Origin: Escherichia phage PSD2001
Direction: 5' to 3' (one strand)
DNA: 64,000 nucleotides
Sequence record: OK254198.1
How positions within the stretch are numbered: the stretch's first letter is position 1; each line of letters opens with the position of its first letter. Below the pieces are notes generated by a model. That model did not search any database. It was given only the letters and a program-made list of their open reading frames with translations, and had not been told where the DNA came from. The position numbers and the translations under genes were made by a program. Shown here in pieces: positions 8,069-63,489 of this stretch.

Positions 8069-8677
8069 TCACTTTAAGATGTTAATAACATGTTGAATGT
8101 TTTCAGTTGACATATGATTGTCAATGTAGGTATTCAATCCACCTACTTTAACGCTAAATCCCACGTCTGTAAACTGTTTTACTATCTTTTGTTCAGTATT
8201 ATACGCATGCACGCGAATCTGACCATCACGACGTACATCAATCTGTTTTAATGTCTTGACACGCTTGAACTTCACAATCAGATTGCTGCGGTCTTCTGAA
8301 ATGCTCTTAAAGTCAATACCAATAGACAACAATTGCTCTTTGATATATTCTGCAGTCGCTTCCATTTCATCAGTCACACCGCGTTTTGTTCTTGTCTTCT
8401 TCACTTCCAGAAGGTCAGGATTATTTTCATTCGCCCAAAGTTCAGCTGCATCCAGAATAAGGTCAACGCCTTTTTCTGTAACCATCAAACCATCACCAGA
8501 AGCTTCAACATAGTTGTTATTCAACAATGTCTGCACACTATCAATTGATGTGTTCTGCTGGTCTAAAACAACCTCTGGACTCACGAAGTTGTTTTTGTAT
8601 ACAAACACCAGAGCATTGACATCAGTCTCATGCAGCGCGTTCTGGGAGCATTTAACGATATAATTTAACTTGTTCAC
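8069..8677 (-). CDS. motA: Middle-transcription activator MotA
   Basis: 202 aa; position between asiA and gene 52; SGDGL motif and overall size match T4 MotA (211 aa). Confidence 0.65.
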   Translation of the reverse strand: MNKLNYIVKCSQNALHETDVNALVFVYKNNFVSPEVVLDQQNTSIDSVQTLLNNNYVEASGDGLMVTEKGVDLILDAAELWANENNPDLLEVKKTRTKRGVTDEMEATAEYIKEQLLSIGIDFKSISEDRSNLIVKFKRVKTLKQIDVRRDGQIRVHAYNTEQKIVKQFTDVGFSVKVGGLNTYIDNHMSTENIQHVINILK

Positions 8678-8679
8678 AA

Positions 8680-8907
8680 TTATCCCTTAATAGATTTCAT
8701 GTAATTTGATGCATATGATTGTACCACAGTACGTTTCATATGGGAAGTAGAAACAATCACATCAATTGCTTGTTTACGTTCTTCTTTAGAGTTTGCCAGT
8801 TTGAACATGTCAAAGTAGTAGTAGCAAGCTTCTTTGTTAGATTTGAATTTGATGTTGATGTATTCTTGACCTTCATTCTGTTGTGCAGTAAACATTTTAT
8901 TCTCCAA
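8680..8907 (-). CDS. Hypothetical protein (75 aa)
   Basis: First ORF downstream of promoter cassette 8945-8974. Confidence 0.45.
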   Translation of the reverse strand: MENKMFTAQQNEGQEYINIKFKSNKEACYYYFDMFKLANSKEERKQAIDVIVSTSHMKRTVVQSYASNYMKSIKG

Positions 8908-8923: not shown

Positions 8924-8976
8924 TGTGTAACTCAGTATGGAATCATTATGTCCTAAGACAAGGGGGTTGTACACTA
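8924..8976 (-). repeat. 53-bp early promoter cassette, copy A (identical to 35247-35299)
   Basis: TGTGTAACTCAGTATGGAATCATTATGTCCTAAGACAAGGGGGTTGTACACTA is present identically at both sites. Confidence 0.8.
8945..8974 (-). promoter_or_regulatory. T4-type early promoter
   Basis: Minus strand: GTGTAC, 18 nt, CATAAT. Confidence 0.45.
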
Positions 8977-8983
8977 CTTTTTT

Positions 8984-9011
8984 TAAAATAAAAAAGGACC
9001 CCGAAGGGTCC
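8984..9011 (-). terminator. Rho-independent terminator downstream of gene 52
   Basis: GGACCC-cgaa-GGGTCC hairpin followed by a T-run on the minus strand. Confidence 0.6.
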
Positions 9012-9105
9012 TAGTCTTTATCTATCTTATTACCAATAAACATACCAACAATCACACCTGCGATTGCCGCAAAAATACAAAGCAATGCAAACTCAACTCC
9101 AAAAC

Positions 9106-11334: not shown

Positions 11335-11372
11335 ATTAATTTCCTCAGTAAGTTAAAGTTTTGTGCTCCAGT

Positions 11373-11394
11373 GGGGTCATTATACTCTGACCCC
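11373..11394 (-). promoter_or_regulatory. Inverted repeat GGGGTCA/TGACCCC enclosing the -10 box of an early promoter
   Basis: Perfect 7-bp arms flank TTATACTC; similar structures at 22026-22047 and 52553-52574. Confidence 0.4.
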
Positions 11395-11408
11395 AAGAGT
11401 TTGTACAC
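11379..11408 (-). promoter_or_regulatory. T4-type early promoter upstream of ndd
   Basis: Minus strand: GTGTAC, 18 nt, TATAAT. Confidence 0.5.
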
Positions 11409-11776
11409 TATTTTTGAAGTTGTTCTAAAATAAATCCGCTGGTGTAAAAGGGAGCATTATAAACCTTGTTCAGTGGGTTCAAAGCCTGTCCGTAAGTATC
11501 ACATAGTTCTTTGATAACATTTTCATAGCTTACATAATAACCACTATGATAATACGGGTCCATACTCATACGAAATTTAATGAACCGATAAAAGCCTGTT
11601 TCTGGGTCTTGAACGAAAACGAAATCAGCACTCGTCATAATTTTTGAATCTACGCCGGGAATCATACTTTGATTGAATGCCGCCGATGCATCCTGAAGGC
11701 TGAGTTGTTTAAAGAACATCACCTTAGCATTACCAAAAAAGATTTTAGACATGATAATTTCCTTATTCAGCGTCAA
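11408..11776 (-). CDS. Hypothetical protein (122 aa)
   Basis: Minus-strand ORF in the ndd-denB interval. Confidence 0.5.
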   Translation of the reverse strand: MTLNKEIIMSKIFFGNAKVMFFKQLSLQDASAAFNQSMIPGVDSKIMTSADFVFVQDPETGFYRFIKFRMSMDPYYHSGYYVSYENVIKELCDTYGQALNPLNKVYNAPFYTSGFILEQLQK

Positions 11777-11975
11777 CAGAAATAGCCATCAGTTCATCAA
11801 CAGTAAGACACTGTACACTAGGACCTACGCAAAAACGCTTAGTTGAATCATTGAGGTCTGTAGCATTAACAGGTTGTAATTCGGTCCCAACTTGCAAAGG
11901 AGAAATACGAATAAGTTGTTGGCCATTATGCAATACAAAGCTCTCACCGACTACCACATCTTTAAAAAGTTTCAT
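11763..11975 (-). CDS. Hypothetical protein (70 aa)
   Basis: Minus-strand ORF preceded by the CTGAGGAAAATAT leader. Confidence 0.4.
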   Translation of the reverse strand: MKLFKDVVVGESFVLHNGQQLIRISPLQVGTELQPVNATDLNDSTKRFCVGPSVQCLTVDELMAISVDAE

Positions 11976-11992
11976 AATATTTTCCTCAGTAA

Positions 11993-12181
11993 TTAAAGAA
12001 TTTCTTCAATTTGAATGTATTTGCTATAACCTTCCTCAATGAGGATATCACGAGCACAATCAGCACTGATATAAGCATTAAAGCTAAGGGTTTTAATCAC
12101 TTTACCATGCAGCTTTACTTTATAAATTCGATTACCCATAATATTTTCCTCAGAAGTTAAAGAATACGCGTACATGGTCAA
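11993..12181 (-). CDS. Hypothetical protein (62 aa)
   Basis: Minus-strand ORF preceded by the CTGAGGAAAATAT leader. Confidence 0.4.
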   Translation of the reverse strand: MTMYAYSLTSEENIMGNRIYKVKLHGKVIKTLSFNAYISADCARDILIEEGYSKYIQIEEIL

Positions 12182-12286
12182 TCATAAAAACAATTGGGAA
12201 AATGCTCAGGACAACAAACAGTACAAACATGTTCCAAATGGCTTTAAGTAACTTTTTCATAATCATCTCCAGTAGTTGATAGGTTC

Positions 12287-12315
12287 ATTATACTACAACC
12301 ACTGGAGATGTACAC
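12287..12315 (-). promoter_or_regulatory. T4-type early promoter
   Basis: Minus strand: GTGTAC, 17 nt, TATAAT. Confidence 0.4.
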
Positions 12316-12669: not shown

Positions 12670-12708
12670 TTTGTTTCTCCAGTCTGTTTGGTAACTCAGT
12701 ATGAAGCC

Positions 12709-12738
12709 ATTATGCACTGACTCCATACTGATGTACAC
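12709..12738 (-). promoter_or_regulatory. T4-type early promoter
   Basis: Minus strand: GTGTAC, 18 nt, CATAAT; shares the AACTCAGTATG block with other cassettes. Confidence 0.45.
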
Positions 12739-18104: not shown

Positions 18105-19937
18105 TTATAGCGTCGCATTCATCCAGTCTTTACGCTGCTGGGAATCTTTACCGAATAGCATTTCGAACAGTTCTTTCCAGTTGTCGGGCAATTGAACAAC
18201 TTCGAATACCGGTTCGAGCAATACACGTTTATACTCGGAATCTTCCAGAGAACCAAGTCCCTTGATATATCGGATGGTGTGCTTCGGAAGTTTATCCTTA
18301 GCTTCTTCATAGTCAGGAAGAGAATAGAACCATTCTTGTTTATCTTTGAGCTGTGCAATAATAACAGGAGTTTTCACAAAGCGAATTCGTCCTTCATGGA
18401 ACAGCTCCGGCCAGTTACTGAAAAACGCCAATAATGATGGATAGATACTACCGACACCATCCACATCCGCATCTGTCATGATAGCAATGTTTCGGTAATT
18501 CATATTCTCGGCCGGCTGACCAATCGTTAACCCAGTAATTGCACACACATCAAAGGCTTCGGCGTTCTTCATAACGTCAACGGCTTTCAGACCCCATGTG
18601 TTTTTAAACTTACCACGTAATGGATAAGCACCTTGCAATTCACGGTCGCGAACCTTGATAAATGGACCAGTTGCAGAATCACCCTCGGTCAGGAACAGAG
18701 TCGTTTCCAGCTTATCATTGCCCCATTCGTTGGCCTTGATATGCTTCTGTACCTTGGCCTTTGAAGCTTTCTTATTTGCCTTAGTCTCTGCTGCTTTCTC
18801 TGCAGCCAATTTACGGGCTAACGCAGCTTCAACAATCGGCATAATCAGCGGTTCATTTTTCAGAATAGCTTGCGCGATTTTCTTAGCATCAATCTTAATG
18901 TGATTTCGGATTTCACCAGCCGGAGAAGTCAATCGCTCCTTGGTCTGGGAATCAAATCGCATGTTGCTCATATCGCGGATGAACATAAGCATGGTGAGAC
19001 ATTCTTTAACTCGTGCCTTGGTCACCTCGATGCCTTTATATTTGCGCTTAATCGCCGGCTGAAGGTGTTCACAGATATCATCCATAACACATTCAACGTG
19101 GTGTCCGCCATTCTTTGTATGAATGTTGTTGACATAAGTCAGCTGACGGAAACCGTCCGGGCTGGTCGTAAAGGCCATCGATACTGTATCAGTTTCCTGG
19201 ATAACAACTTCAGTCCCGAATTGCTTGGAGAACTTCTTGAAATTACCATCAACCTTTTTACCATTAAAGGTGAACTGAATATCCGGATAAACAACCGCGA
19301 GAGTTTGCAGACGGTCCAATGTAATATCCAGATAAATCTGGGACAGACTATTTTCTTCAAAGTGACTAAAATCTGGAACAAATATAACAGTTGTACCTTT
19401 GCCCTTAGATTTCTTGGTGGACCAACCTTTGTTTTCCATACCGTTGGAGCAGTTAACGGTGATTTCATTTGCACCATCAGCGGTAATCCCGGTGAACAAT
19501 ACAGAGAAAATATTGGTCAGAGAAGACCCGACACCATTCATCCCGCCAGTTTTACGTTCAGCATCATCACCGAAGTTGCCACCGGCTTTTGGAATAGTCC
19601 ATGCTGCAACAGGGCCAGGGATTTGTTCACCGTTTTGGTCTGTAACCATTGCTTGTGGAATACCACGGCCATTATCAGAAACCGAAATCTGATTATCTTT
19701 AATTTGGACATCAATTTTATTGGCAAATTTAAAACTGGTGCGAATTGCTTCATCAACAGAGTTATCGATAATTTCATCAATCAGTTTTACAATACCAGGA
19801 ACATAGCTTACGGACTTATATTCACCAAACAAGAATCGCTCATGCGCTTCATTTGAACTGGAACCAATATACATCCCGGAACGTTTTTTGATATGTTCGA
19901 CGTCCGAGAGTACTTTAATTTCATTATTAATCATCAT
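18105..19937 (-). CDS. 39: DNA topoisomerase II large (ATPase) subunit, single uninterrupted gene equivalent to T4 genes 39 plus 60
   Basis: 610 aa; GyrB-type ATPase (RSGMYIGS, IIDNSVDEA, SDNGRGIP) and Toprim region in one frame; no 50-nt bypass element or split. Confidence 0.9.
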   Translation of the reverse strand: MMINNEIKVLSDVEHIKKRSGMYIGSSSNEAHERFLFGEYKSVSYVPGIVKLIDEIIDNSVDEAIRTSFKFANKIDVQIKDNQISVSDNGRGIPQAMVTDQNGEQIPGPVAAWTIPKAGGNFGDDAERKTGGMNGVGSSLTNIFSVLFTGITADGANEITVNCSNGMENKGWSTKKSKGKGTTVIFVPDFSHFEENSLSQIYLDITLDRLQTLAVVYPDIQFTFNGKKVDGNFKKFSKQFGTEVVIQETDTVSMAFTTSPDGFRQLTYVNNIHTKNGGHHVECVMDDICEHLQPAIKRKYKGIEVTKARVKECLTMLMFIRDMSNMRFDSQTKERLTSPAGEIRNHIKIDAKKIAQAILKNEPLIMPIVEAALARKLAAEKAAETKANKKASKAKVQKHIKANEWGNDKLETTLFLTEGDSATGPFIKVRDRELQGAYPLRGKFKNTWGLKAVDVMKNAEAFDVCAITGLTIGQPAENMNYRNIAIMTDADVDGVGSIYPSLLAFFSNWPELFHEGRIRFVKTPVIIAQLKDKQEWFYSLPDYEEAKDKLPKHTIRYIKGLGSLEDSEYKRVLLEPVFEVVQLPDNWKELFEMLFGKDSQQRKDWMNATL

Positions 19938-21989: not shown

Positions 21990-22031
21990 AATTTTCTCTC
22001 TTGGTTAATAAGTTTATTCTCCAGTGGGACC

Positions 22032-22061
22032 ATTATACTCTGGCCCCAAGAGTTTGTACAC
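22032..22061 (-). promoter_or_regulatory. T4-type early promoter
   Basis: Minus strand: GTGTAC, 18 nt, TATAAT; -10 sits inside inverted repeat 22026-22047. Confidence 0.5.
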
Positions 22062-22068
22062 TTTAAAT

Positions 22069-25682: not shown

Positions 25683-26426
25683 TTAACCTCTAATCAGTTT
25701 AAAAATTGACGCGTTCAAAGGTAGACCACGTTTCAGTTTAAGGCGGTCAATGAATGACAACTTATCTAAACGCTCCAGACCTTGAATAATTTTATCATAC
25801 ATATCGTAACGCGTTTCAGCGTCAGATGATTTCATTTTCAGACGCCAGTCAGGACCACCCATAACCATTTTCAGCCCACGTTGACTAGTTCCGATGGAAG
25901 CCATTTGTCCATGGATACGAGCCTTGACTGCAATCACAGAAGGGGTGGTATCTTTAGCGCCACTTTTATAAAGCTCTTTTAAATGTTTTTGACGTTTCTT
26001 GATTCCACGTTCGGTATCTTTAATATTTTTAACAATTTTGCGAATTTTATAATAGTCAGCAGGAGTTACTTTAAAACTATTGGGCATCTTAGAACCGCCA
26101 TTAATACGCACCGCCAAACGAGTCTGCGCACGTTTAAGTTCATCAAGAGATAAATCAGCACGTAAACCGTTGTACTTAGTTTTGACAGGGATAACATTGC
26201 CTTCAATATAACCTATATCATTGTTAAAGCGTTCAAAGGAAACTTTATCTTGAGTTGAATTTTCATCAAAACGTTCACCAGAATACGCACAGAATTCTTG
26301 TTTCAAAAGATTGGCGATATACTTACTAGACAGATTGAAATCCTTGTTACGACGTTTTGCAGACGTTTTGGTATGCTCGCGACGTTTGTAAACTTTTAAT
26401 TCAAACTCTTCTTTTGACATATTCAT
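25683..26426 (-). CDS. Hypothetical basic protein (247 aa), Srd position; contains a degenerate HNH-like motif
   Basis: Lies where T4 srd lies (between dda.1 and modA/modB); CAYSGERFDEN...SFERFNNDIGYIEGNVIPV resembles an HNH_3 core with the catalytic His residues replaced. Confidence 0.5.
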   Translation of the reverse strand: MNMSKEEFELKVYKRREHTKTSAKRRNKDFNLSSKYIANLLKQEFCAYSGERFDENSTQDKVSFERFNNDIGYIEGNVIPVKTKYNGLRADLSLDELKRAQTRLAVRINGGSKMPNSFKVTPADYYKIRKIVKNIKDTERGIKKRQKHLKELYKSGAKDTTPSVIAVKARIHGQMASIGTSQRGLKMVMGGPDWRLKMKSSDAETRYDMYDKIIQGLERLDKLSFIDRLKLKRGLPLNASIFKLIRG

Positions 26427-26472
26427 GATATTTTTCTCATCTTACGGACGATTGAAAACTCAGTATGGATTC

Positions 26473-26501
26473 ATTATACACTATACATCTTTTATGTACA
26501 C
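26473..26501 (-). promoter_or_regulatory. T4-type early promoter
   Basis: Minus strand: GTGTAC, 17 nt, TATAAT. Confidence 0.45.
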
Positions 26502-26582: not shown

Positions 26583-27197
26583 TCAGTAAGAAAGAACGGA
26601 AAGATTCCATAATTTATAGTCTTCCCATCTATAAATGCTCTCAATAGAGTCCACGCGTAGCGTAGTTCCCGCAGGGAACATCATCTCATCTTCATCATTT
26701 ACTAATTGCAAGTTTGAAGAACGAGTTATTTCAGGATATAGTCCATTGAACTCTTCAGGAGGTGCCGCACAAATCATTTTAAAAATCGCTTCCTGATAAT
26801 CAAATGCGAATGGTGCATCATTAATACAGAAAATATTTTTGGTTCCATAGAAGCTAAAGGAAGCAAAGTTACGCGCAACACTGAAATCTTTGGAGAAACT
26901 CATTACACGGTCAAACTCAATCGTAGCACCAACACATCCTACGGTTTCAAGATATGCCAAAGTTTTCTTAGAAATCCCGCGATATAACTTACCAGGCACA
27001 ACAGAAGTCAAATTCTTACGAATAATTTTGTTCAAAGTTTCCTGGATAGTGTCTGGCTTATTTTCCATGCACTGCCAGAGTGTACTCTGTTCCAACTCAG
27101 AGTAAATTTCATCAATTTCAATCTGGGTATTTTCACGAAAATATTCACATTTAACTGCATTGATGTACTCTGCTAATTGGTGACTTGCGTACAGCAT
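26583..27197 (-). CDS. ADP-ribosyltransferase, ModA/ModB family (204 aa)
   Basis: R-S-E triad candidates: LYRG, SFSKDF, acidic DEDEMMF; start at the ATG after the shared leader; paralog of the adjacent gene. Confidence 0.5.
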   Translation of the reverse strand: MLYASHQLAEYINAVKCEYFRENTQIEIDEIYSELEQSTLWQCMENKPDTIQETLNKIIRKNLTSVVPGKLYRGISKKTLAYLETVGCVGATIEFDRVMSFSKDFSVARNFASFSFYGTKNIFCINDAPFAFDYQEAIFKMICAAPPEEFNGLYPEITRSSNLQLVNDEDEMMFPAGTTLRVDSIESIYRWEDYKLWNLSVLSY

Positions 27198-27241
27198 TTT
27201 ATTATCCTCATCAGTAGTTGATAGGAACATCTTAACGTGTC

Positions 27242-31081: not shown

Positions 31082-31189
31082 GTGGAACTTACTGGTTGTG
31101 CCCATCGCTGCAACACAAGGGGTGCACTTACCCCAGGTCACAATGGAACATATCCATTCCATCATCGGTTACTTTACCGGAATCCCTTC

Positions 31190-32628: not shown

Positions 32629-32824
32629 ATTGTTCCCTTCTTTTAATTAGTTGACGATGCGCCTTTTTAAGTTTACGAATCTGGCGTTTAGTTGGTCGAG
32701 CAACGTAAGCTTGAGTAGTTACTCGTCCAAAAACTCCATACTTGGGAGACGGCGTATCAATAAAGACTTCCCATTGGCAAGAGTAACTATATATTGCTTT
32801 AGAGAATTGGGTCAAAACAAACAT
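32603..32824 (-). CDS. Hypothetical protein (73 aa)
   Basis: Minus-strand ORF, basic. Confidence 0.4.
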   Translation of the reverse strand: MFVLTQFSKAIYSYSCQWEVFIDTPSPKYGVFGRVTTQAYVARPTKRQIRKLKKAHRQLIKRREQYECNVYGL

Positions 32825-32825
32825 A

Positions 32826-33179
32826 TTAACCTCGCTTCATGAAGGCATTAAAAATCTGGTCGTCGACAGACTGTTCTTGAGCTTTGACCCAAGCCCCTTC
32901 CAAAATGTCATTTGCTTCAGTAGATAGCATGACCCCAATTTCAGGGTTTCCGGTTATCCATGCTGCACAATCACGTACATTCTTTTTATCAAATGGATAG
33001 CCGCGAGTATCTTCATAAGGTCCATTCATTACCATAAATGAGCGAGCCTTTATGATAACACCATCTTTAACGATAATATAACCAATCGCCTGATTAAACC
33101 GAGGCTCACGAAATTCATAATGAGCATTACCATCATTATTGCTCGTCAGTTCAAAATTCAGAAAATTATAATAACTCAT
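32826..33179 (-). CDS. Hypothetical protein (117 aa) ending SVDDQIFNAFMKRG
   Basis: C-terminal 13 aa and about 40 nt of 3' sequence are near-identical to the 3' end of the adjacent gene. Confidence 0.5.
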   Translation of the reverse strand: MSYYNFLNFELTSNNDGNAHYEFREPRFNQAIGYIIVKDGVIIKARSFMVMNGPYEDTRGYPFDKKNVRDCAAWITGNPEIGVMLSTEANDILEGAWVKAQEQSVDDQIFNAFMKRG

Positions 33180-33180
33180 A

Positions 33181-33621
33181 TTAATCTCGCTTCATGAAAG
33201 CATTAAAAATCTGGTCGTCAACTGAATAAACAGGGGTTTCCAGAAGTTTCAAAAGACTGTTTTTGATGTACTTACCAGGGATACCCATATTAACAATACT
33301 GTCATTCAATTCATTATCTGGGATGATGTCTTTAAATTCAAACCCGTCAAACTCAACCTTGTCAGGAATACCGTCAGCGAAAAAATAAACCAATTGGTGC
33401 ATTGTATTGCGCGAAAATAATTTAGACTTGACCGCAATAAGTTCTTGCCAATGGTTTAATTCTTTGTTAAGAAGTTTATGAGCAAACGTAATTCTATTGT
33501 CACTATCGACAAGAAAATAACCCAGGTATTGAATGGGTTCGTCGCTCCAAAACATCCTGTATGCTTGTGCATTTTGATTTTTACAACGAAGTTTTTTGAT
33601 AACTAAATTTCTGTTAATCAT
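33181..33621 (-). CDS. Hypothetical protein (146 aa) ending SVDDQIFNAFMKRD
   Basis: Start at the ATG at 33621 (AGGTGA Shine-Dalgarno), 1 nt after the upstream stop; shares its C-terminal tail with the previous gene. Confidence 0.5.
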   Translation of the reverse strand: MINRNLVIKKLRCKNQNAQAYRMFWSDEPIQYLGYFLVDSDNRITFAHKLLNKELNHWQELIAVKSKLFSRNTMHQLVYFFADGIPDKVEFDGFEFKDIIPDNELNDSIVNMGIPGKYIKNSLLKLLETPVYSVDDQIFNAFMKRD

Positions 33622-33916: not shown

Positions 33917-33974
33917 TTCAATCTCCTCAGTAGTTGATAGGGATAATATACTGCATTATCCCTTTGATGTACAC

Positions 33975-34847: not shown

Positions 34848-34885
34848 TTTATTCTCCAGTAGTTGATAGAGTCATTATAACATAA

Positions 34886-34906
34886 GAAAAAGGGGCTGTA
34901 AGCCCC
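34886..34906 (-). terminator. Rho-independent terminator
   Basis: GGGGC-ttaca-GCCCC hairpin followed by TTTTTT on the minus strand. Confidence 0.55.
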
Positions 34907-34915
34907 TTTATTCAC

Positions 34916-35218
34916 TTACGCCAACTCATAGTTGTGCATAGTCAGACAACGAATTTTCCCAGTAGTTGGGTGCATAACAGTCACACTAATTGTGTAATCA
35001 TCGCACACGTTAACAAAAGGTTCAGCGATAACATATACTTCACCGCCTGCAAGCAGATACTCACGAAGAGAGCTGCGAACAGATGAAGGTTGAACATCGC
35101 TTTTGAGCTTTATTAATTTACCAGTTTGAATGCCTGATGCGATAAGAGCAGCACAGTTTTCATCACGGCGAGCGAATTGTCCAAAATAGTAACGATTCAT
35201 GTCGGTTTGATTAAACAT
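34916..35218 (-). CDS. Hypothetical protein (100 aa)
   Basis: First ORF downstream of promoter cassette copy B. Confidence 0.45.
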   Translation of the reverse strand: MFNQTDMNRYYFGQFARRDENCAALIASGIQTGKLIKLKSDVQPSSVRSSLREYLLAGGEVYVIAEPFVNVCDDYTISVTVMHPTTGKIRCLTMHNYELA

Positions 35219-35246: not shown

Positions 35247-35299
35247 TGTGTAACTCAGTATGGAATCATTATGTCCTAAGACAAGGGGGTTGTACACTA
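35247..35299 (-). repeat. 53-bp early promoter cassette, copy B (identical to 8924-8976)
   Basis: Exact 53-nt identity with copy A. Confidence 0.8.
35268..35297 (-). promoter_or_regulatory. T4-type early promoter
   Basis: Minus strand: GTGTAC, 18 nt, CATAAT. Confidence 0.45.
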
Positions 35300-35545
35300 T
35301 TTTAATTCATTAATTAAATGAAAATCTTGTGCATTGAAAGTAATGAAAAAATAATCATTCCCTTCAACTGAAGCATGACAAGCAACACTACACCAGCGCC
35401 TTGCTCTGTTCAATGAGCAATCCAAAATTTTAAAAGGCTTCAGACCAACAATGTCAGCTGTTCTTTTATTATGCTCACAAATATCAGCATACTTTTGGAG
35501 AGCTTCTTCAGATTTGAACTGGTAATGCACATTAACTAATAACAT
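35297..35545 (-). CDS. Hypothetical protein (82 aa)
   Basis: Minus-strand ORF preceded by the shared leader hairpin and a GTTTACA/TACTAT promoter. Confidence 0.45.
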   Translation of the reverse strand: MLLVNVHYQFKSEEALQKYADICEHNKRTADIVGLKPFKILDCSLNRARRWCSVACHASVEGNDYFFITFNAQDFHLINELK

Positions 35546-35613
35546 TTTATTATCCTCATCAGTAGTTGATGGGATAATAGTACACTCTTTTTATGGTGAT
35601 GTAAACCCCTAAA

Positions 35614-35632
35614 TGAAAAAGACCCGAAGGTC
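35614..35632 (-). terminator. Rho-independent terminator downstream of gene 41
   Basis: GACC-cgaa-GGTC hairpin followed by TTTTT on the minus strand. Confidence 0.5.
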
Positions 35633-35633
35633 T

Positions 35634-37073
35634 TTAGAATTTCATTTGAGCAGCAAGGTCGTCCAGGTCGCTCCTGTTGACCCTGGTTTGTCTATTCATT
35701 TCAGCCTGGCGATTCATCTCACCGGTGGCTTCTTTAACCGTAGGGCCTTGTTTAGGAGCTGAATCATCATCAATCTCGTACCAGCGCTGATTGCCTTTCT
35801 TAACACCCATCTTGAATTTATTATAGTAGTTCTTATCGCCATAACGAGACTTAAGCTGTTTGATTAACTGTAGTCCCATTTGAGCGAATTCTTCGGTCTC
35901 AACAACACCCAACATAAAGTCGGCCGTGTGAGCAATACCAAAGGATTCTGCGATGTCAGCCATATCAATCTCAGCTGCAACGTTTGCGCCCCTTGTTGTC
36001 TGCGCTGCAGTCCACAGGACTACATTTTTCTCGACCGCCAGACCACGAAGTTCTTCTGCAACCATCTTAATCAGACCGTAACTGTTTTCGGTAAACGTTT
36101 TCAGTCTTGAGCTTGCACAGATTGCCAGGTAGTCAACAATAATCACATCCGGCACAAACCCTTGCTTCAGTTTGTATTCATTCAATAATGCACGGAAGGT
36201 ATCCGCATGAGCACCGCCAGTTGGATATTGTTTTATCTTCAGAGTCCCAAGAGTCCCGGCTGCACGCCATTTTTCCATCTTAGCTTTATATTCCGCCCAT
36301 GACACATGACCTTCATCAATATCATCCAGAGATACATCCAGCAAGTTGGCATCAATACGTTTGGCACATACTTCTTCAGCCATTTCCATGCTTATATAAA
36401 GCACGTTATGACCAGTCTGAAGATAGTCGGCCGCTAACGAACAAAGTCCCAGAGATTTCCCGACGTTGGTCCCGGCCAGTAAAACGTTCTCTGTGCCGTA
36501 CTCAACTCCACCCTTCGTGATTTTATTCAGGATGTTAATGCGGAACGGAACCTTTTTCGATTTGTTCAGATAAGTCTGGAATCGAGCTTCGTAATCGTTT
36601 AACCAATCATGGCCCAGAGCAGAGTCAAAACAGATAGACAATGCATCGCGCATGATGTCGGGGATAGCACCAATATCCGGGATTCGTTTATCACGTTTAT
36701 CTTTCGGAAGTTCGGCATTACTCTGGATTTCGATAATCCTGGATGTGGCATTGAACATCGCAGATTTCTGCACATACTTCTCGGTTTCTCTAACCAACCA
36801 TTCTTGGTCTTCTGGAGTATCGGCCAGGACTCCTAAGAGTTTCTTTGTGCCTTCATATTCGACTTCAGAAAGGTCAGAACTGTCGAGCGCGATATCAAGT
36901 GCAGTCTTAGTTGGTACCGCTTGATATTCTTTTACGTGTTCGTTAATCGTATTAAAAAGGGTCTTCGCGGGACCCTTTTCAAAATATGTGTTATTCAGAT
37001 ACGGCCAGACTTTAACAAAATATTCCTTGTTAAAGAGTAGCTGGGATAAAATAGTTTCTACCACTTCCACCAC
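35634..37073 (-). CDS. 41: Replicative DNA helicase gp41 (DnaB family)
   Basis: 479 aa; Walker A GTNVGKS; LYISMEMAEEVCAKRIDAN, VDYL, KQYPTGGA match T4 gp41. Confidence 0.9.
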   Translation of the reverse strand: MVEVVETILSQLLFNKEYFVKVWPYLNNTYFEKGPAKTLFNTINEHVKEYQAVPTKTALDIALDSSDLSEVEYEGTKKLLGVLADTPEDQEWLVRETEKYVQKSAMFNATSRIIEIQSNAELPKDKRDKRIPDIGAIPDIMRDALSICFDSALGHDWLNDYEARFQTYLNKSKKVPFRINILNKITKGGVEYGTENVLLAGTNVGKSLGLCSLAADYLQTGHNVLYISMEMAEEVCAKRIDANLLDVSLDDIDEGHVSWAEYKAKMEKWRAAGTLGTLKIKQYPTGGAHADTFRALLNEYKLKQGFVPDVIIVDYLAICASSRLKTFTENSYGLIKMVAEELRGLAVEKNVVLWTAAQTTRGANVAAEIDMADIAESFGIAHTADFMLGVVETEEFAQMGLQLIKQLKSRYGDKNYYNKFKMGVKKGNQRWYEIDDDSAPKQGPTVKEATGEMNRQAEMNRQTRVNRSDLDDLAAQMKF

Positions 37074-53517: not shown

Positions 53518-53584
53518 TTTGTTTTCCTCATCAGTAGTTGATGGGATAATGATACACCGTTCAAAGGGGCTTGTACACCCCTTT

Positions 53585-53950
53585 TTAATCTTCAATTAAG
53601 TCCTGGTCATACCCCAGGGATATCAGTTTTGTTTTAAAGGCAGGAATATTTGTCATTTTTTCATCATTGACAAAAATCACTGGGTAACGAATGTTAAGGG
53701 TAGGATATCCAGCACGCTTAGCCAAAGACACGATTAATGGCCTGTCATAAGCGATTTCAGAGCCTTGTTTGTTAAGGACTGAATAGAATGTATAAGGAAG
53801 GTTTAAGGAGCCCAGAAGGCTCCTGACGTGCATACAACCAGGGCATCGACCGACTTCTTCGGGGATACCATAGATTTCAATTTTAGTTAACTTTTGGTCC
53901 ACAGGAAATAACTCCTTGGTAGTCCCAAGTTGTGATATCTTCTTCGTCAT
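53585..53950 (-). CDS. Thioredoxin-fold protein with CPGC motif (possible NrdH-like redoxin); start uncertain
   Basis: IEIYGIPEEVGRCPGCMHV resembles a redoxin active site; the track frame extends to 54082 and overlaps the upstream ORF. Confidence 0.4.
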   Translation of the reverse strand: MTKKISQLGTTKELFPVDQKLTKIEIYGIPEEVGRCPGCMHVRSLLGSLNLPYTFYSVLNKQGSEIAYDRPLIVSLAKRAGYPTLNIRYPVIFVNDEKMTNIPAFKTKLISLGYDQDLIED

Positions 53951-63423: not shown

Positions 63424-63459
63424 TTTATTCTCCAGTATTTGGTAACTCAGTATGGGAAC

Positions 63460-63489
63460 ATTATACGTCTATCCCCATACTATGTACAC
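63460..63489 (-). promoter_or_regulatory. T4-type early promoter
   Basis: Minus strand: GTGTAC, 18 nt, TATAAT; shares the AACTCAGTATGG block with other cassettes. Confidence 0.45.

Follow-up and report, generated by a model that had tools for sequence, protein, structure and literature searches.

Twin early promoters 26 kb apart in Escherichia phage PSD2001 were probably made identical by a recent short conversion

Introduction

The stretch of Escherichia phage PSD2001 analyzed here (record OK254198.1; 64,000 nucleotides, hereafter the window) holds one 53-bp sequence twice, at two loci separated by about 26 kb. How two promoter regions so far from each other came to be alike to the last base is the question of this study. 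A first-pass annotation had taken the copies to resemble the promoter-early stem-loop (PeSL) cassettes of T4-type phages. The PeSLs were described in RB49/phi1 (Arbiol et al. 2010, PMC2839356), and PST/T4 and nt-1/KVP40 were added later (Comeau et al. 2014, PMC4122927). The PeSL literature treats deletion, insertion, and mini-circles (PMC2839356, PMC4122927), and the words conversion, homogenisation, and concerted are absent from the 2010 paper (PMC2839356). In our study, the 53 bp was probably an early promoter whose two copies became identical through recent short conversion or templated repair from locus 2, on the gene 41 side, into locus 1, the motA promoter.

Identity and occurrence of the repeat

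The recount gave 53 equal bases out of 53 between 8924-8976 and 35247-35299, in the same orientation and with no extension on either side, where the flanking bases differed; the earlier statement of base-for-base identity was thus borne out. The pair was the sole exact repeat of at least 30 bp within the 64-kb window. It supplied all 24 repeated 30-mers of the window, and therefore lies far beyond chance.

By megablast, the exact 53-mer was absent from 50,697 GenBank phage records, among which the best match was 52/53. The cassette was found in 11 phage records, and in two places only in TH44 and UPEC01. In addition, the IMG/VR search with the 53-mer gave no match, also with the variable base entered as N, and the 42-nt core of the repeat had no match in the JGI metagenomes. 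The Rfam scan of the whole window returned nothing at gathering thresholds, so the conserved start block of the promoters is not a known RNA family.

The 2-kb pieces around each copy matched approximately 30 genomes of coliphages, Shigella phages, and Yersinia phages at 94-98%, none of them identical. The matched genomes belong to the genus Gaprivervirus (VR7, SP18, VR20, UPEC01, phage 212, and the TH series), and the window is that of a VR7/SP18-like T4-type coliphage. Its minus-strand gene order was T4-like: 41, dmd, 61, 56, soc, modA/B, dda, dexA, 39, rIIA, rIIB, denB, ndd, 52, and motA.

An assembly artefact, in which the repeat was collapsed or copied during assembly, would also give identical copies, and a related record, DCP80, has a duplicated stretch resembling an assembly problem. 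However, 53 bp is less than the read length, the flanks are locus-specific and orthologous to those of relatives on both sides, and UPEC01 and TH44 independently carry the same spacer at locus 1. The chance of such an artefact is practically negligible. The DCP80 record itself (PQ671644.1, 141 kb) holds the sp-dmd-ORF100-ORF82 stretch twice, at 57.7-59.3 kb and 74.6-76.2 kb, with each gene annotated in just one of the two. Its cassette was considered as a transposed one and rejected; the duplicated stretch is probably an assembly problem and not a transposition.

Promoter structure and transcription units

Read on the minus strand, the 53 bp was TAGTGTACAA-CCCCCTTGTCTTAGGA-CATAAT-GATTCCATACTGAGTTACACA. 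The consensus scan found TGTACA-17-CATAAT, with 9 of 12 matches, on the minus strand at 8973..8945 and 35296..35268. The T4-type early promoter that the first-pass annotation had claimed for each copy was therefore recovered, with the correction that it reads on the minus strand. An A/T tract lay upstream of both copies, and the extended -10 (TGn) was absent before the -10 of both. These features suggest that the 53 bp forms the core (approximately -38 to +15) of a host sigma-70-dependent early promoter, with promoter activity predicted from the sequence. The features of both loci and of the related promoters are listed in Table 1, in which the +1 positions were placed by the usual 7-nt distance to the -10.

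Table 1. Features at the two copies of the 53-bp repeat and at related early promoters of the window.
Feature	Position	Strand	Description
Copy 1, 53-bp core promoter	8924..8976	-	-35 TGTACA 8973-8968; 17-bp spacer 8967-8951; -10 CATAAT 8950-8945
Copy 1 start	predicted +1 ~8938	-	Conserved initially transcribed block ATACTGAGTTACACA reaches 8924
Intrinsic-terminator hairpin AGGACCCTTCGGGGTCCT and T-run	8995..9012	-	7 pairs; closes the gene 52/small-ORF unit
ORF71, phrog_17275, function unknown	8683..8895	-	Orthologue of VR7ORF277c; first gene behind copy 1
motA, activator of middle transcription	8069..8677	-	Second gene in the copy-1 transcription unit
Copy 2, 53-bp core promoter	35247..35299	-	-35 35296-35291; -10 35273-35268; predicted +1 ~35261
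ORF100, phrog_17014, function unknown	34916..35218	-	First gene behind copy 2; 43-nt leader
ORF82, goF-like, phrog_2980	35297..35545	-	Variable small gene directly upstream of copy 2
Gene 41 terminator hairpin (35635-35618) and ORF82 early promoter TTTACA-17-TACTAT (35605-35577)	35577..35635	-	Left boundary of the variable module
ORF105 composite terminator/promoter	34874..34909	-	Hairpin AAAGGGGCTTACAGCCCCTTT with -35 CTTACA in the loop, then -10 TATAAT; right boundary of the variable module
Weaker family member	12685..12737	-	Shares the CATACTGAGTTAC block; spacer complementary to the block; hairpin with -10 in the loop, -20.3 kcal/mol, z -5.4
Weaker family member	26448..26500	-	TGTACA-17-TATAAT, then GAATCCATACTGAG
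Weaker family member	63436..63488	-	Hairpin with -10 in the loop, -16.7 kcal/mol, z -3.9
Six hairpin promoters	12262-12308, 12685-12731, 11355-11401, 22008-22054, 33921-33967, 63436-63482	-	Spacer is the reverse complement of the promoter's own start block

Copy 1 lies behind the gene 52 terminator, whose hairpin ends 21 nt upstream of the -35, and would drive a predicted ORF71-motA transcript. ORF71 has the Shine-Dalgarno sequence GGAG at 8905-8902 and a 43-nt leader, and its Shine-Dalgarno/start region is GGAGAATAAAATG. Copy 2 lies downstream of gene 41 and would drive a predicted ORF100-ORF105-dmd transcript. The TAG stop codon of ORF82 (35299-35297) falls within copy 2, and the Shine-Dalgarno/start region of ORF100, AAGGAAAACCATATG, was located 43 nt past the predicted +1. 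A duplication of gene plus promoter was considered and rejected: ORF71 and ORF100 were unalignable, and ORF71, ORF100, and ORF82 were each single-copy in the window. With no relationship between ORF71 and ORF100, the repetition is confined to the promoter.

Early promoter family of the window

A pattern scan of the window found approximately 16 minus-strand sites fitting AAAA-AGTGTACA-N17-TATAATG. The start block CCATACTGAGTTAC was common to 5 of the approximately 16 sites, and ATCAACTACTG was common to approximately 7. The first-pass annotation had also listed weaker relatives of the repeat at 12691-12738, 26461-26501, and 63431-63489. The repeat finder agreed, giving 12685-12713, 26449-26477, and 63436-63464 with 72-86% identity, and each of the three was a minus-strand promoter-like site. 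The comparison of these sequences suggests that the twins are old paralogues in a family of approximately 16 early promoter/terminator cassettes, members of which would normally share just the -35, the -10, and the start block.

In 6 of the 16 family promoters, the -10 was enclosed in the loop of a strong hairpin, with energies of -12 to -21 kcal/mol and z of -2.1 to -5.8. The arm sequences differed from promoter to promoter. None of the six was followed by a U-run, and they are therefore not classical terminators. In the hairpin at 12262-12308, the Shine-Dalgarno sequence GGAGA sits in the stem, so it would be masked in read-through RNA and free in RNA started there. Furthermore, two composite terminator/promoters were seen on the minus strand, at 34889-34909 (AAAGGGGCTTACAGCCCCTTT) and at approximately 53560-53585 (AAAGGGGTGTACAAGCCCCTTT). 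Each combined a G4...C4 hairpin and a T-run, and the -35 hexamer lay in the loop of the G-run/C-run hairpin; the second, near 53577, was judged from sequence.

Spacer alleles at the two loci

The locus-1 intergenic region was aligned base by base in 10 of the approximately 30 relatives, and the remainder was judged from BLAST identity tables. The -35, the -10, and the start block were kept at locus 1 in all 10 aligned relatives and were invariant at both loci in the relatives compared. The spacer was variable. A locus-1 spacer different from that of the window, for instance GTCCCTTGACCCGATG, was found in 8 of the 10: written with the last A of the -35, it was AGTCCCTTGACCCGATG in 212, TH54, and TH57, and close variants of it occurred in TH41, TH55, TH22, TH40, and VR7. 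The window has ACCCCCTTGTCTTAGGA at this place. Among the 10 relatives, the copy-2 type spacer (CCCCTTGTCTTAGGA) was present at locus 1 only in UPEC01 and TH44, in which it equals that of the window bar one base. The BLAST identities of the remaining relatives fit an unconverted locus 1.

Compared with the eight relatives carrying the other spacer, the window differed at 8-9 of the 17 spacer positions, and the surrounding 2 kb was only 2-5% divergent (P of 1e-6 to 1e-11). Moreover, every derived base in the locus-1 spacer equals the locus-2 state. At locus 2, the copy-2 spacer was found in 212, UPEC01, TH41, TH44, SP18, and MN01, several of which have another spacer at locus 1. Since locus 2 has this spacer in relatives with an unconverted locus 1, the spacer is native there and locus 2 is the donor. 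The substitutions were thus clustered far above the local divergence and the donor was unchanged (non-reciprocal), as in ectopic conversion.

We consider it probable that the motA promoter lost its own 17-bp spacer and received in its place a copy of that of the gene-41-side promoter. The transfer would have been short and one-way, and gene conversion or templated repair/template switching is the molecular route that we infer. The transferred tract would have a length of 17 to 53 bp. Conserved sequence flanks the spacer, with 10 bp (TAGTGTACAA) before it and 27 bp (CATAAT...ACACA) after it, and might have supplied the homology for the transfer. Stretches of this length are short for strand invasion of the classical type.

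The identity might instead be ancestral, the duplicated promoter having been kept by purifying selection with no recent exchange. The invariant -35, -10, and start block in all relatives do indicate strong selection on most of the 53 bp. However, the 17-bp spacer is free to vary, with at least five alleles at locus 1 and three at locus 2. In addition, the copies were non-identical in 8 of the 10 relatives, identical only in the window, and near-identical in two others, and the present data suggest that the genomes with identical spacers are a derived clade or scattered tips. Ancestral identity is therefore highly improbable.

The base after the -35 was variable as well. At locus 2, it was G in 212, UPEC01, TH41, SP18, and MN01, and A in TH44; at locus 1, it was A in UPEC01 and T in TH44. 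The window has C at both loci. Because the other records lack this C and none reaches 53/53, it is a private variant common to both copies, which places the last homogenising event in the own lineage of this phage.

The same base bears on a further possibility, that a co-infecting relative supplied the locus-1 allele in finished form, through homologous recombination in the motA region, with no ectopic event in the phage's own lineage. The converted locus-1 allele is nearly the same in the window, UPEC01, and TH44 but has different haplotypes at its flanks in the three, and TH44 is visibly mosaic just upstream of the locus-1 promoter, so alleles do move between lineages. From these varied flanks, the allele may go back to a single conversion with ordinary recombination thereafter, or conversion may have taken place independently more than once. 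But import merely shifts the ectopic event to another genome, and it leaves unexplained the private C at both loci, found in no other record. For the window, we regard import as unlikely; for UPEC01 and TH44, import of the converted allele is possible.

Selection for co-regulation was also considered, in which the motA and ORF100/dmd units gain from having the same promoter and the converted allele is fixed for that reason. A spacer can tune promoter strength, and the converted allele occurs in three lineages. However, most relatives thrive with different spacers, and a whole group of them (type C, below) is without copy 2 and ORF100, which makes such selection quite unlikely. A recent short conversion from locus 2 is the reading that we retain for the motA promoter.

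Gene gain and loss at the cassettes

Gene content at locus 1 was stable among the relatives, and locus 2 had four architectures. Type A ran from gene 41 through the terminator, promoter, ORF82, copy 2, ORF100, and the terminator/promoter to ORF105; it was found in the window, 212, UPEC01, TH41, TH44, and SP18, and by coverage in RZ, P896, CJ20, and P479. Type B, in VR7, VR20, and MN01 and by coverage in VR25, was without ORF82. The VR7 joint was in the -35, where GGGGT of the ORF82 promoter is followed directly by the GTACAAC of copy 2. Type C, in TH22, TH55, TH40, and TH57 and by coverage in approximately six more, was without ORF82, copy 2, and ORF100, and its joint was at the AAAGGGG arm, which the ORF105 cassette shares with copy 2 of the MN01 type. 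Type D, in TH54, had a different ORF, whose joints fell within the ORF82 promoter's -35 and the CTATCAACTACTGGAG leader. The expectation of cassette-bounded rearrangements among related genomes was accordingly confirmed, since flanking gene content differs at locus 2 and the joints lie in neighbouring cassettes. In the proposed mechanism, the family cassettes would mark joints for the gain, loss, and replacement of small genes at locus 2, by exchange between neighbouring cassettes.

In the rest of the 30 kb, several indels ended at promoters, terminators, or repeated ribosome-binding regions. By a rough count, approximately 9 of 34 indel joints fell in cassettes, which make up approximately 5% of the sequence, a figure that is not an enrichment test because gene-preserving indels must hit intergenic DNA, which here is mostly promoter.

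Several individual sites were noticed in the same comparison. The ribosome-binding/start region GAGGAAAATATTATG is repeated at 11973-12001 and 12137-12165 (93% over 29 nt). These repeats bound ORF-precise deletions or replacements in relatives, and TH40 is without 11760-11973. In place of the approximately 300 bp at 25833-26132, 9 of the 9 relatives compared had an equally long stretch that could not be aligned; this is coding sequence near srd, downstream of the 26500 promoter.

The first-pass annotation had viewed the identical copies as substrates for homologous recombination. That the copies exchanged sequence agrees with this, but no rearrangement between the twins was seen, and the nine relatives with both loci were collinear across the interval. 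The 26 kb between the twins holds genes 52, 39, rIIA/B, dda, 56 (dCTPase), and 61 (primase), including topoisomerase subunits. In T4 genetics, such a 26-kb deletion would not survive, and a 26-kb duplication would exceed the head capacity. Since the interval carries essential genes, the product of a twin-to-twin deletion should be dead. It could still be held that the twins are a live substrate of homologous recombination that drives modular shuffling between the copies, through a 26-kb deletion or circle: they are a perfect 53-bp direct repeat, T4 recombination acts on patches of less than 50 bp, and mini-circles are known from the PeSL pairs of RB49/phi1 (PMC2839356). With a deletion that should be lethal, 9 of 9 relatives collinear, and the shuffling that was observed joining cassettes only 300-700 bp apart, we find this distinctly unlikely. 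The identity of the twins is better understood as the outcome of recombination, in the form of a short conversion patch, than as material kept ready for modular shuffling.

Other cassette pairs and repeats

A second cassette pair showed comparable behaviour. The promoter pair 11360-11409 and 22013-22062, 10.6 kb apart, was 90% alike in the window. The orthologues of these 11407 and 22060 promoters shared an exact 44 bp over 10.9 kb in TH55, TH22, and TH40, 40 bp in TH54, 30 bp in 212, and 19 bp in the window. Between the two promoters of the window, a compensated hairpin change was found (GGGGTCA/TGACCCC versus GGGGCCA/TGGTCCC). In 9 of 10 genomes, every exact repeat of at least 28 bp lying kilobases apart within the 30-kb region was a promoter cassette or the leader of one, and TH57 had no repeat of such length. 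Furthermore, the most similar cassette pair varied from genome to genome among the 10. Such genome-specific pairs would be the pattern expected from ongoing exchange among cassettes.

A window-private cluster of 7 substitutions was observed around the -10 at 12700-12722, in the promoter with its -35 at 12737 (CAGTGCATAATGGCTTC versus CTATGTATAATGATTCC). The CTATGTATAATGATTCC state was present in most of nine relatives, and phage 212 was intermediate. A donor for this patch was not found within the 64 kb.

Other repeats concerned leaders and gene starts. The leader and start ATCAACTACTGATGAGGATAATAAAATG at 35543-35570 and 27195-27222 were identical over 28 nt, with the genes 8.3 kb apart; a CATCA-ACTAC-TGATG hairpin overlaps the ribosome-binding site in these leaders. 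Two gene starts at 32822-32870 and 33177-33225, 355 bp apart, were 92% identical over 49 nt, which suggests a tandem pair of small paralogous genes. In UPEC01 (19107-19288), there was a perfect 91-bp tandem duplication with a promoter-like TGTACA...TAAGAT, for which the window has a single copy at 31082-31089. According to the BLAST chain, TH41 and TH44 have an 89-bp insertion at the site of the UPEC01 duplication.

Implications

The example presents a concrete, datable patch exchange between cassettes over 26 kb, a modest new detail beyond the deletion and insertion of neighbouring genes. With it, the PeSL concept reaches a further genus of therapeutic-type coliphages, on the basis of approximately 30 close genomes instead of single pairs. 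For annotators, it accounts for the longest dispersed repeats in these genomes being promoters and for the turnover of small early genes downstream of gene 41.

A wider proposal is that T4-type early cassettes undergo frequent, possibly structure-stimulated patch conversion over tens of kb with 10-30 bp of flanking identity, so that the promoter set evolves in concert. We put this forward as a tentative idea, to be doubted more than believed. If it is true, spacers, and hence promoter strength or hairpin content, would be swapped as units. Palindromes around the -10 or -35 could then extrude and be cut, for instance by endonuclease VII, seeding conversions as well as cassette-bounded deletions. 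The footprint would be that different cassette pairs are identical in each genome, such as 53 bp here and 44 bp in TH55, TH22, and TH40.

Comparison with known systems

Schultz and Drake in 2008 reportedly described templated mutagenesis in T4, in which a cluster of simultaneous substitutions, flanked by short identity, converts an imperfect repeat to the exact sequence of a donor elsewhere in that genome. Their scoring is said to have concerned laboratory mutations of rI, for which most donors were close by. Compared with that system, the motA promoter is a natural promoter variant with its donor 26 kb away, and the mechanism is one that we infer.

Among T4 early promoters, the elements are UP, -35, TGn, and -10, with TGn typical of strong ones (Hinton 2010, PMC2988021). 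The promoters of the window resemble them in having host sigma-70 elements, A/T-rich sequence upstream, and conserved positions in addition to the hexamers, and in standing before early genes, motA included (PMC2988021). They differ in the lack of TGn, in the TGTACA -35, and in the conserved transcribed start block CCATACTGAGTTAC of five promoters.

In RB49/phi1, the stem-loop of a PeSL can precede the promoter, stand between its two boxes, overlap the -35 or the -10, or directly follow the -10 (PMC2839356). Both copies in the window have sigma-70-like -35/-10 boxes 17 bp apart and, at the 3' end, the Shine-Dalgarno sequence and start codon of the downstream gene. A further PeSL feature is TTTTTTATTTTAAAAAAAGTAG in copy 1 and TTTCATTTAATTAATGAATTAAAATAG in copy 2. 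The repeated family and the variable early regions also agree, and indel or replacement joints inside cassettes were found among close relatives at locus 2. In copy 1, a terminator-like stem-loop stands beside the promoter, which with the A/T tract gives the full PeSL layout. In copy 2, no adjacent stem-loop was found in the window, and the nearest terminator is approximately 320 bp upstream, past ORF82. This copy keeps the CCCCCTT arm alone, and the MN01 orthologue still has its partner, AAGGGG-TGTACAAG-CCCCTT; copy 2 is therefore a degraded or half PeSL, a type known from PMC4122927. Within the 53-bp unit itself no stem-loop was found, the fold of spacer, -10, and start block giving -5.7 kcal/mol with z of -0.3 to -0.4. 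The resemblance to PeSLs that had been claimed thus holds for family and layout, but not for a stem-loop in the repeated unit or beside copy 2.

As a family, the cassettes of the window are like the PeSLs of RB49/phi1, PST/T4, and nt-1/KVP40 in their order of stop codon or terminator, A/T tract, -35/N17/-10, Shine-Dalgarno sequence, and start codon. They share the early hyperplastic regions, the stem-loops upstream of or overlapping the -35/-10, often of a G-run plus a C-run, and the joints in cassettes of indels and replacements between close relatives. Unlike the known PeSLs, they are from the genus Gaprivervirus, for whose neighbouring group only an unpublished remark on JS98 was found. In addition, the -35 is TGTACA here and TTGACA or TTTACW there, and a short non-reciprocal patch between cassettes 26 kb apart sets the present case apart from them. 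The twins are new representatives of the PeSL class, in Gaprivervirus, of a kind of element already described.
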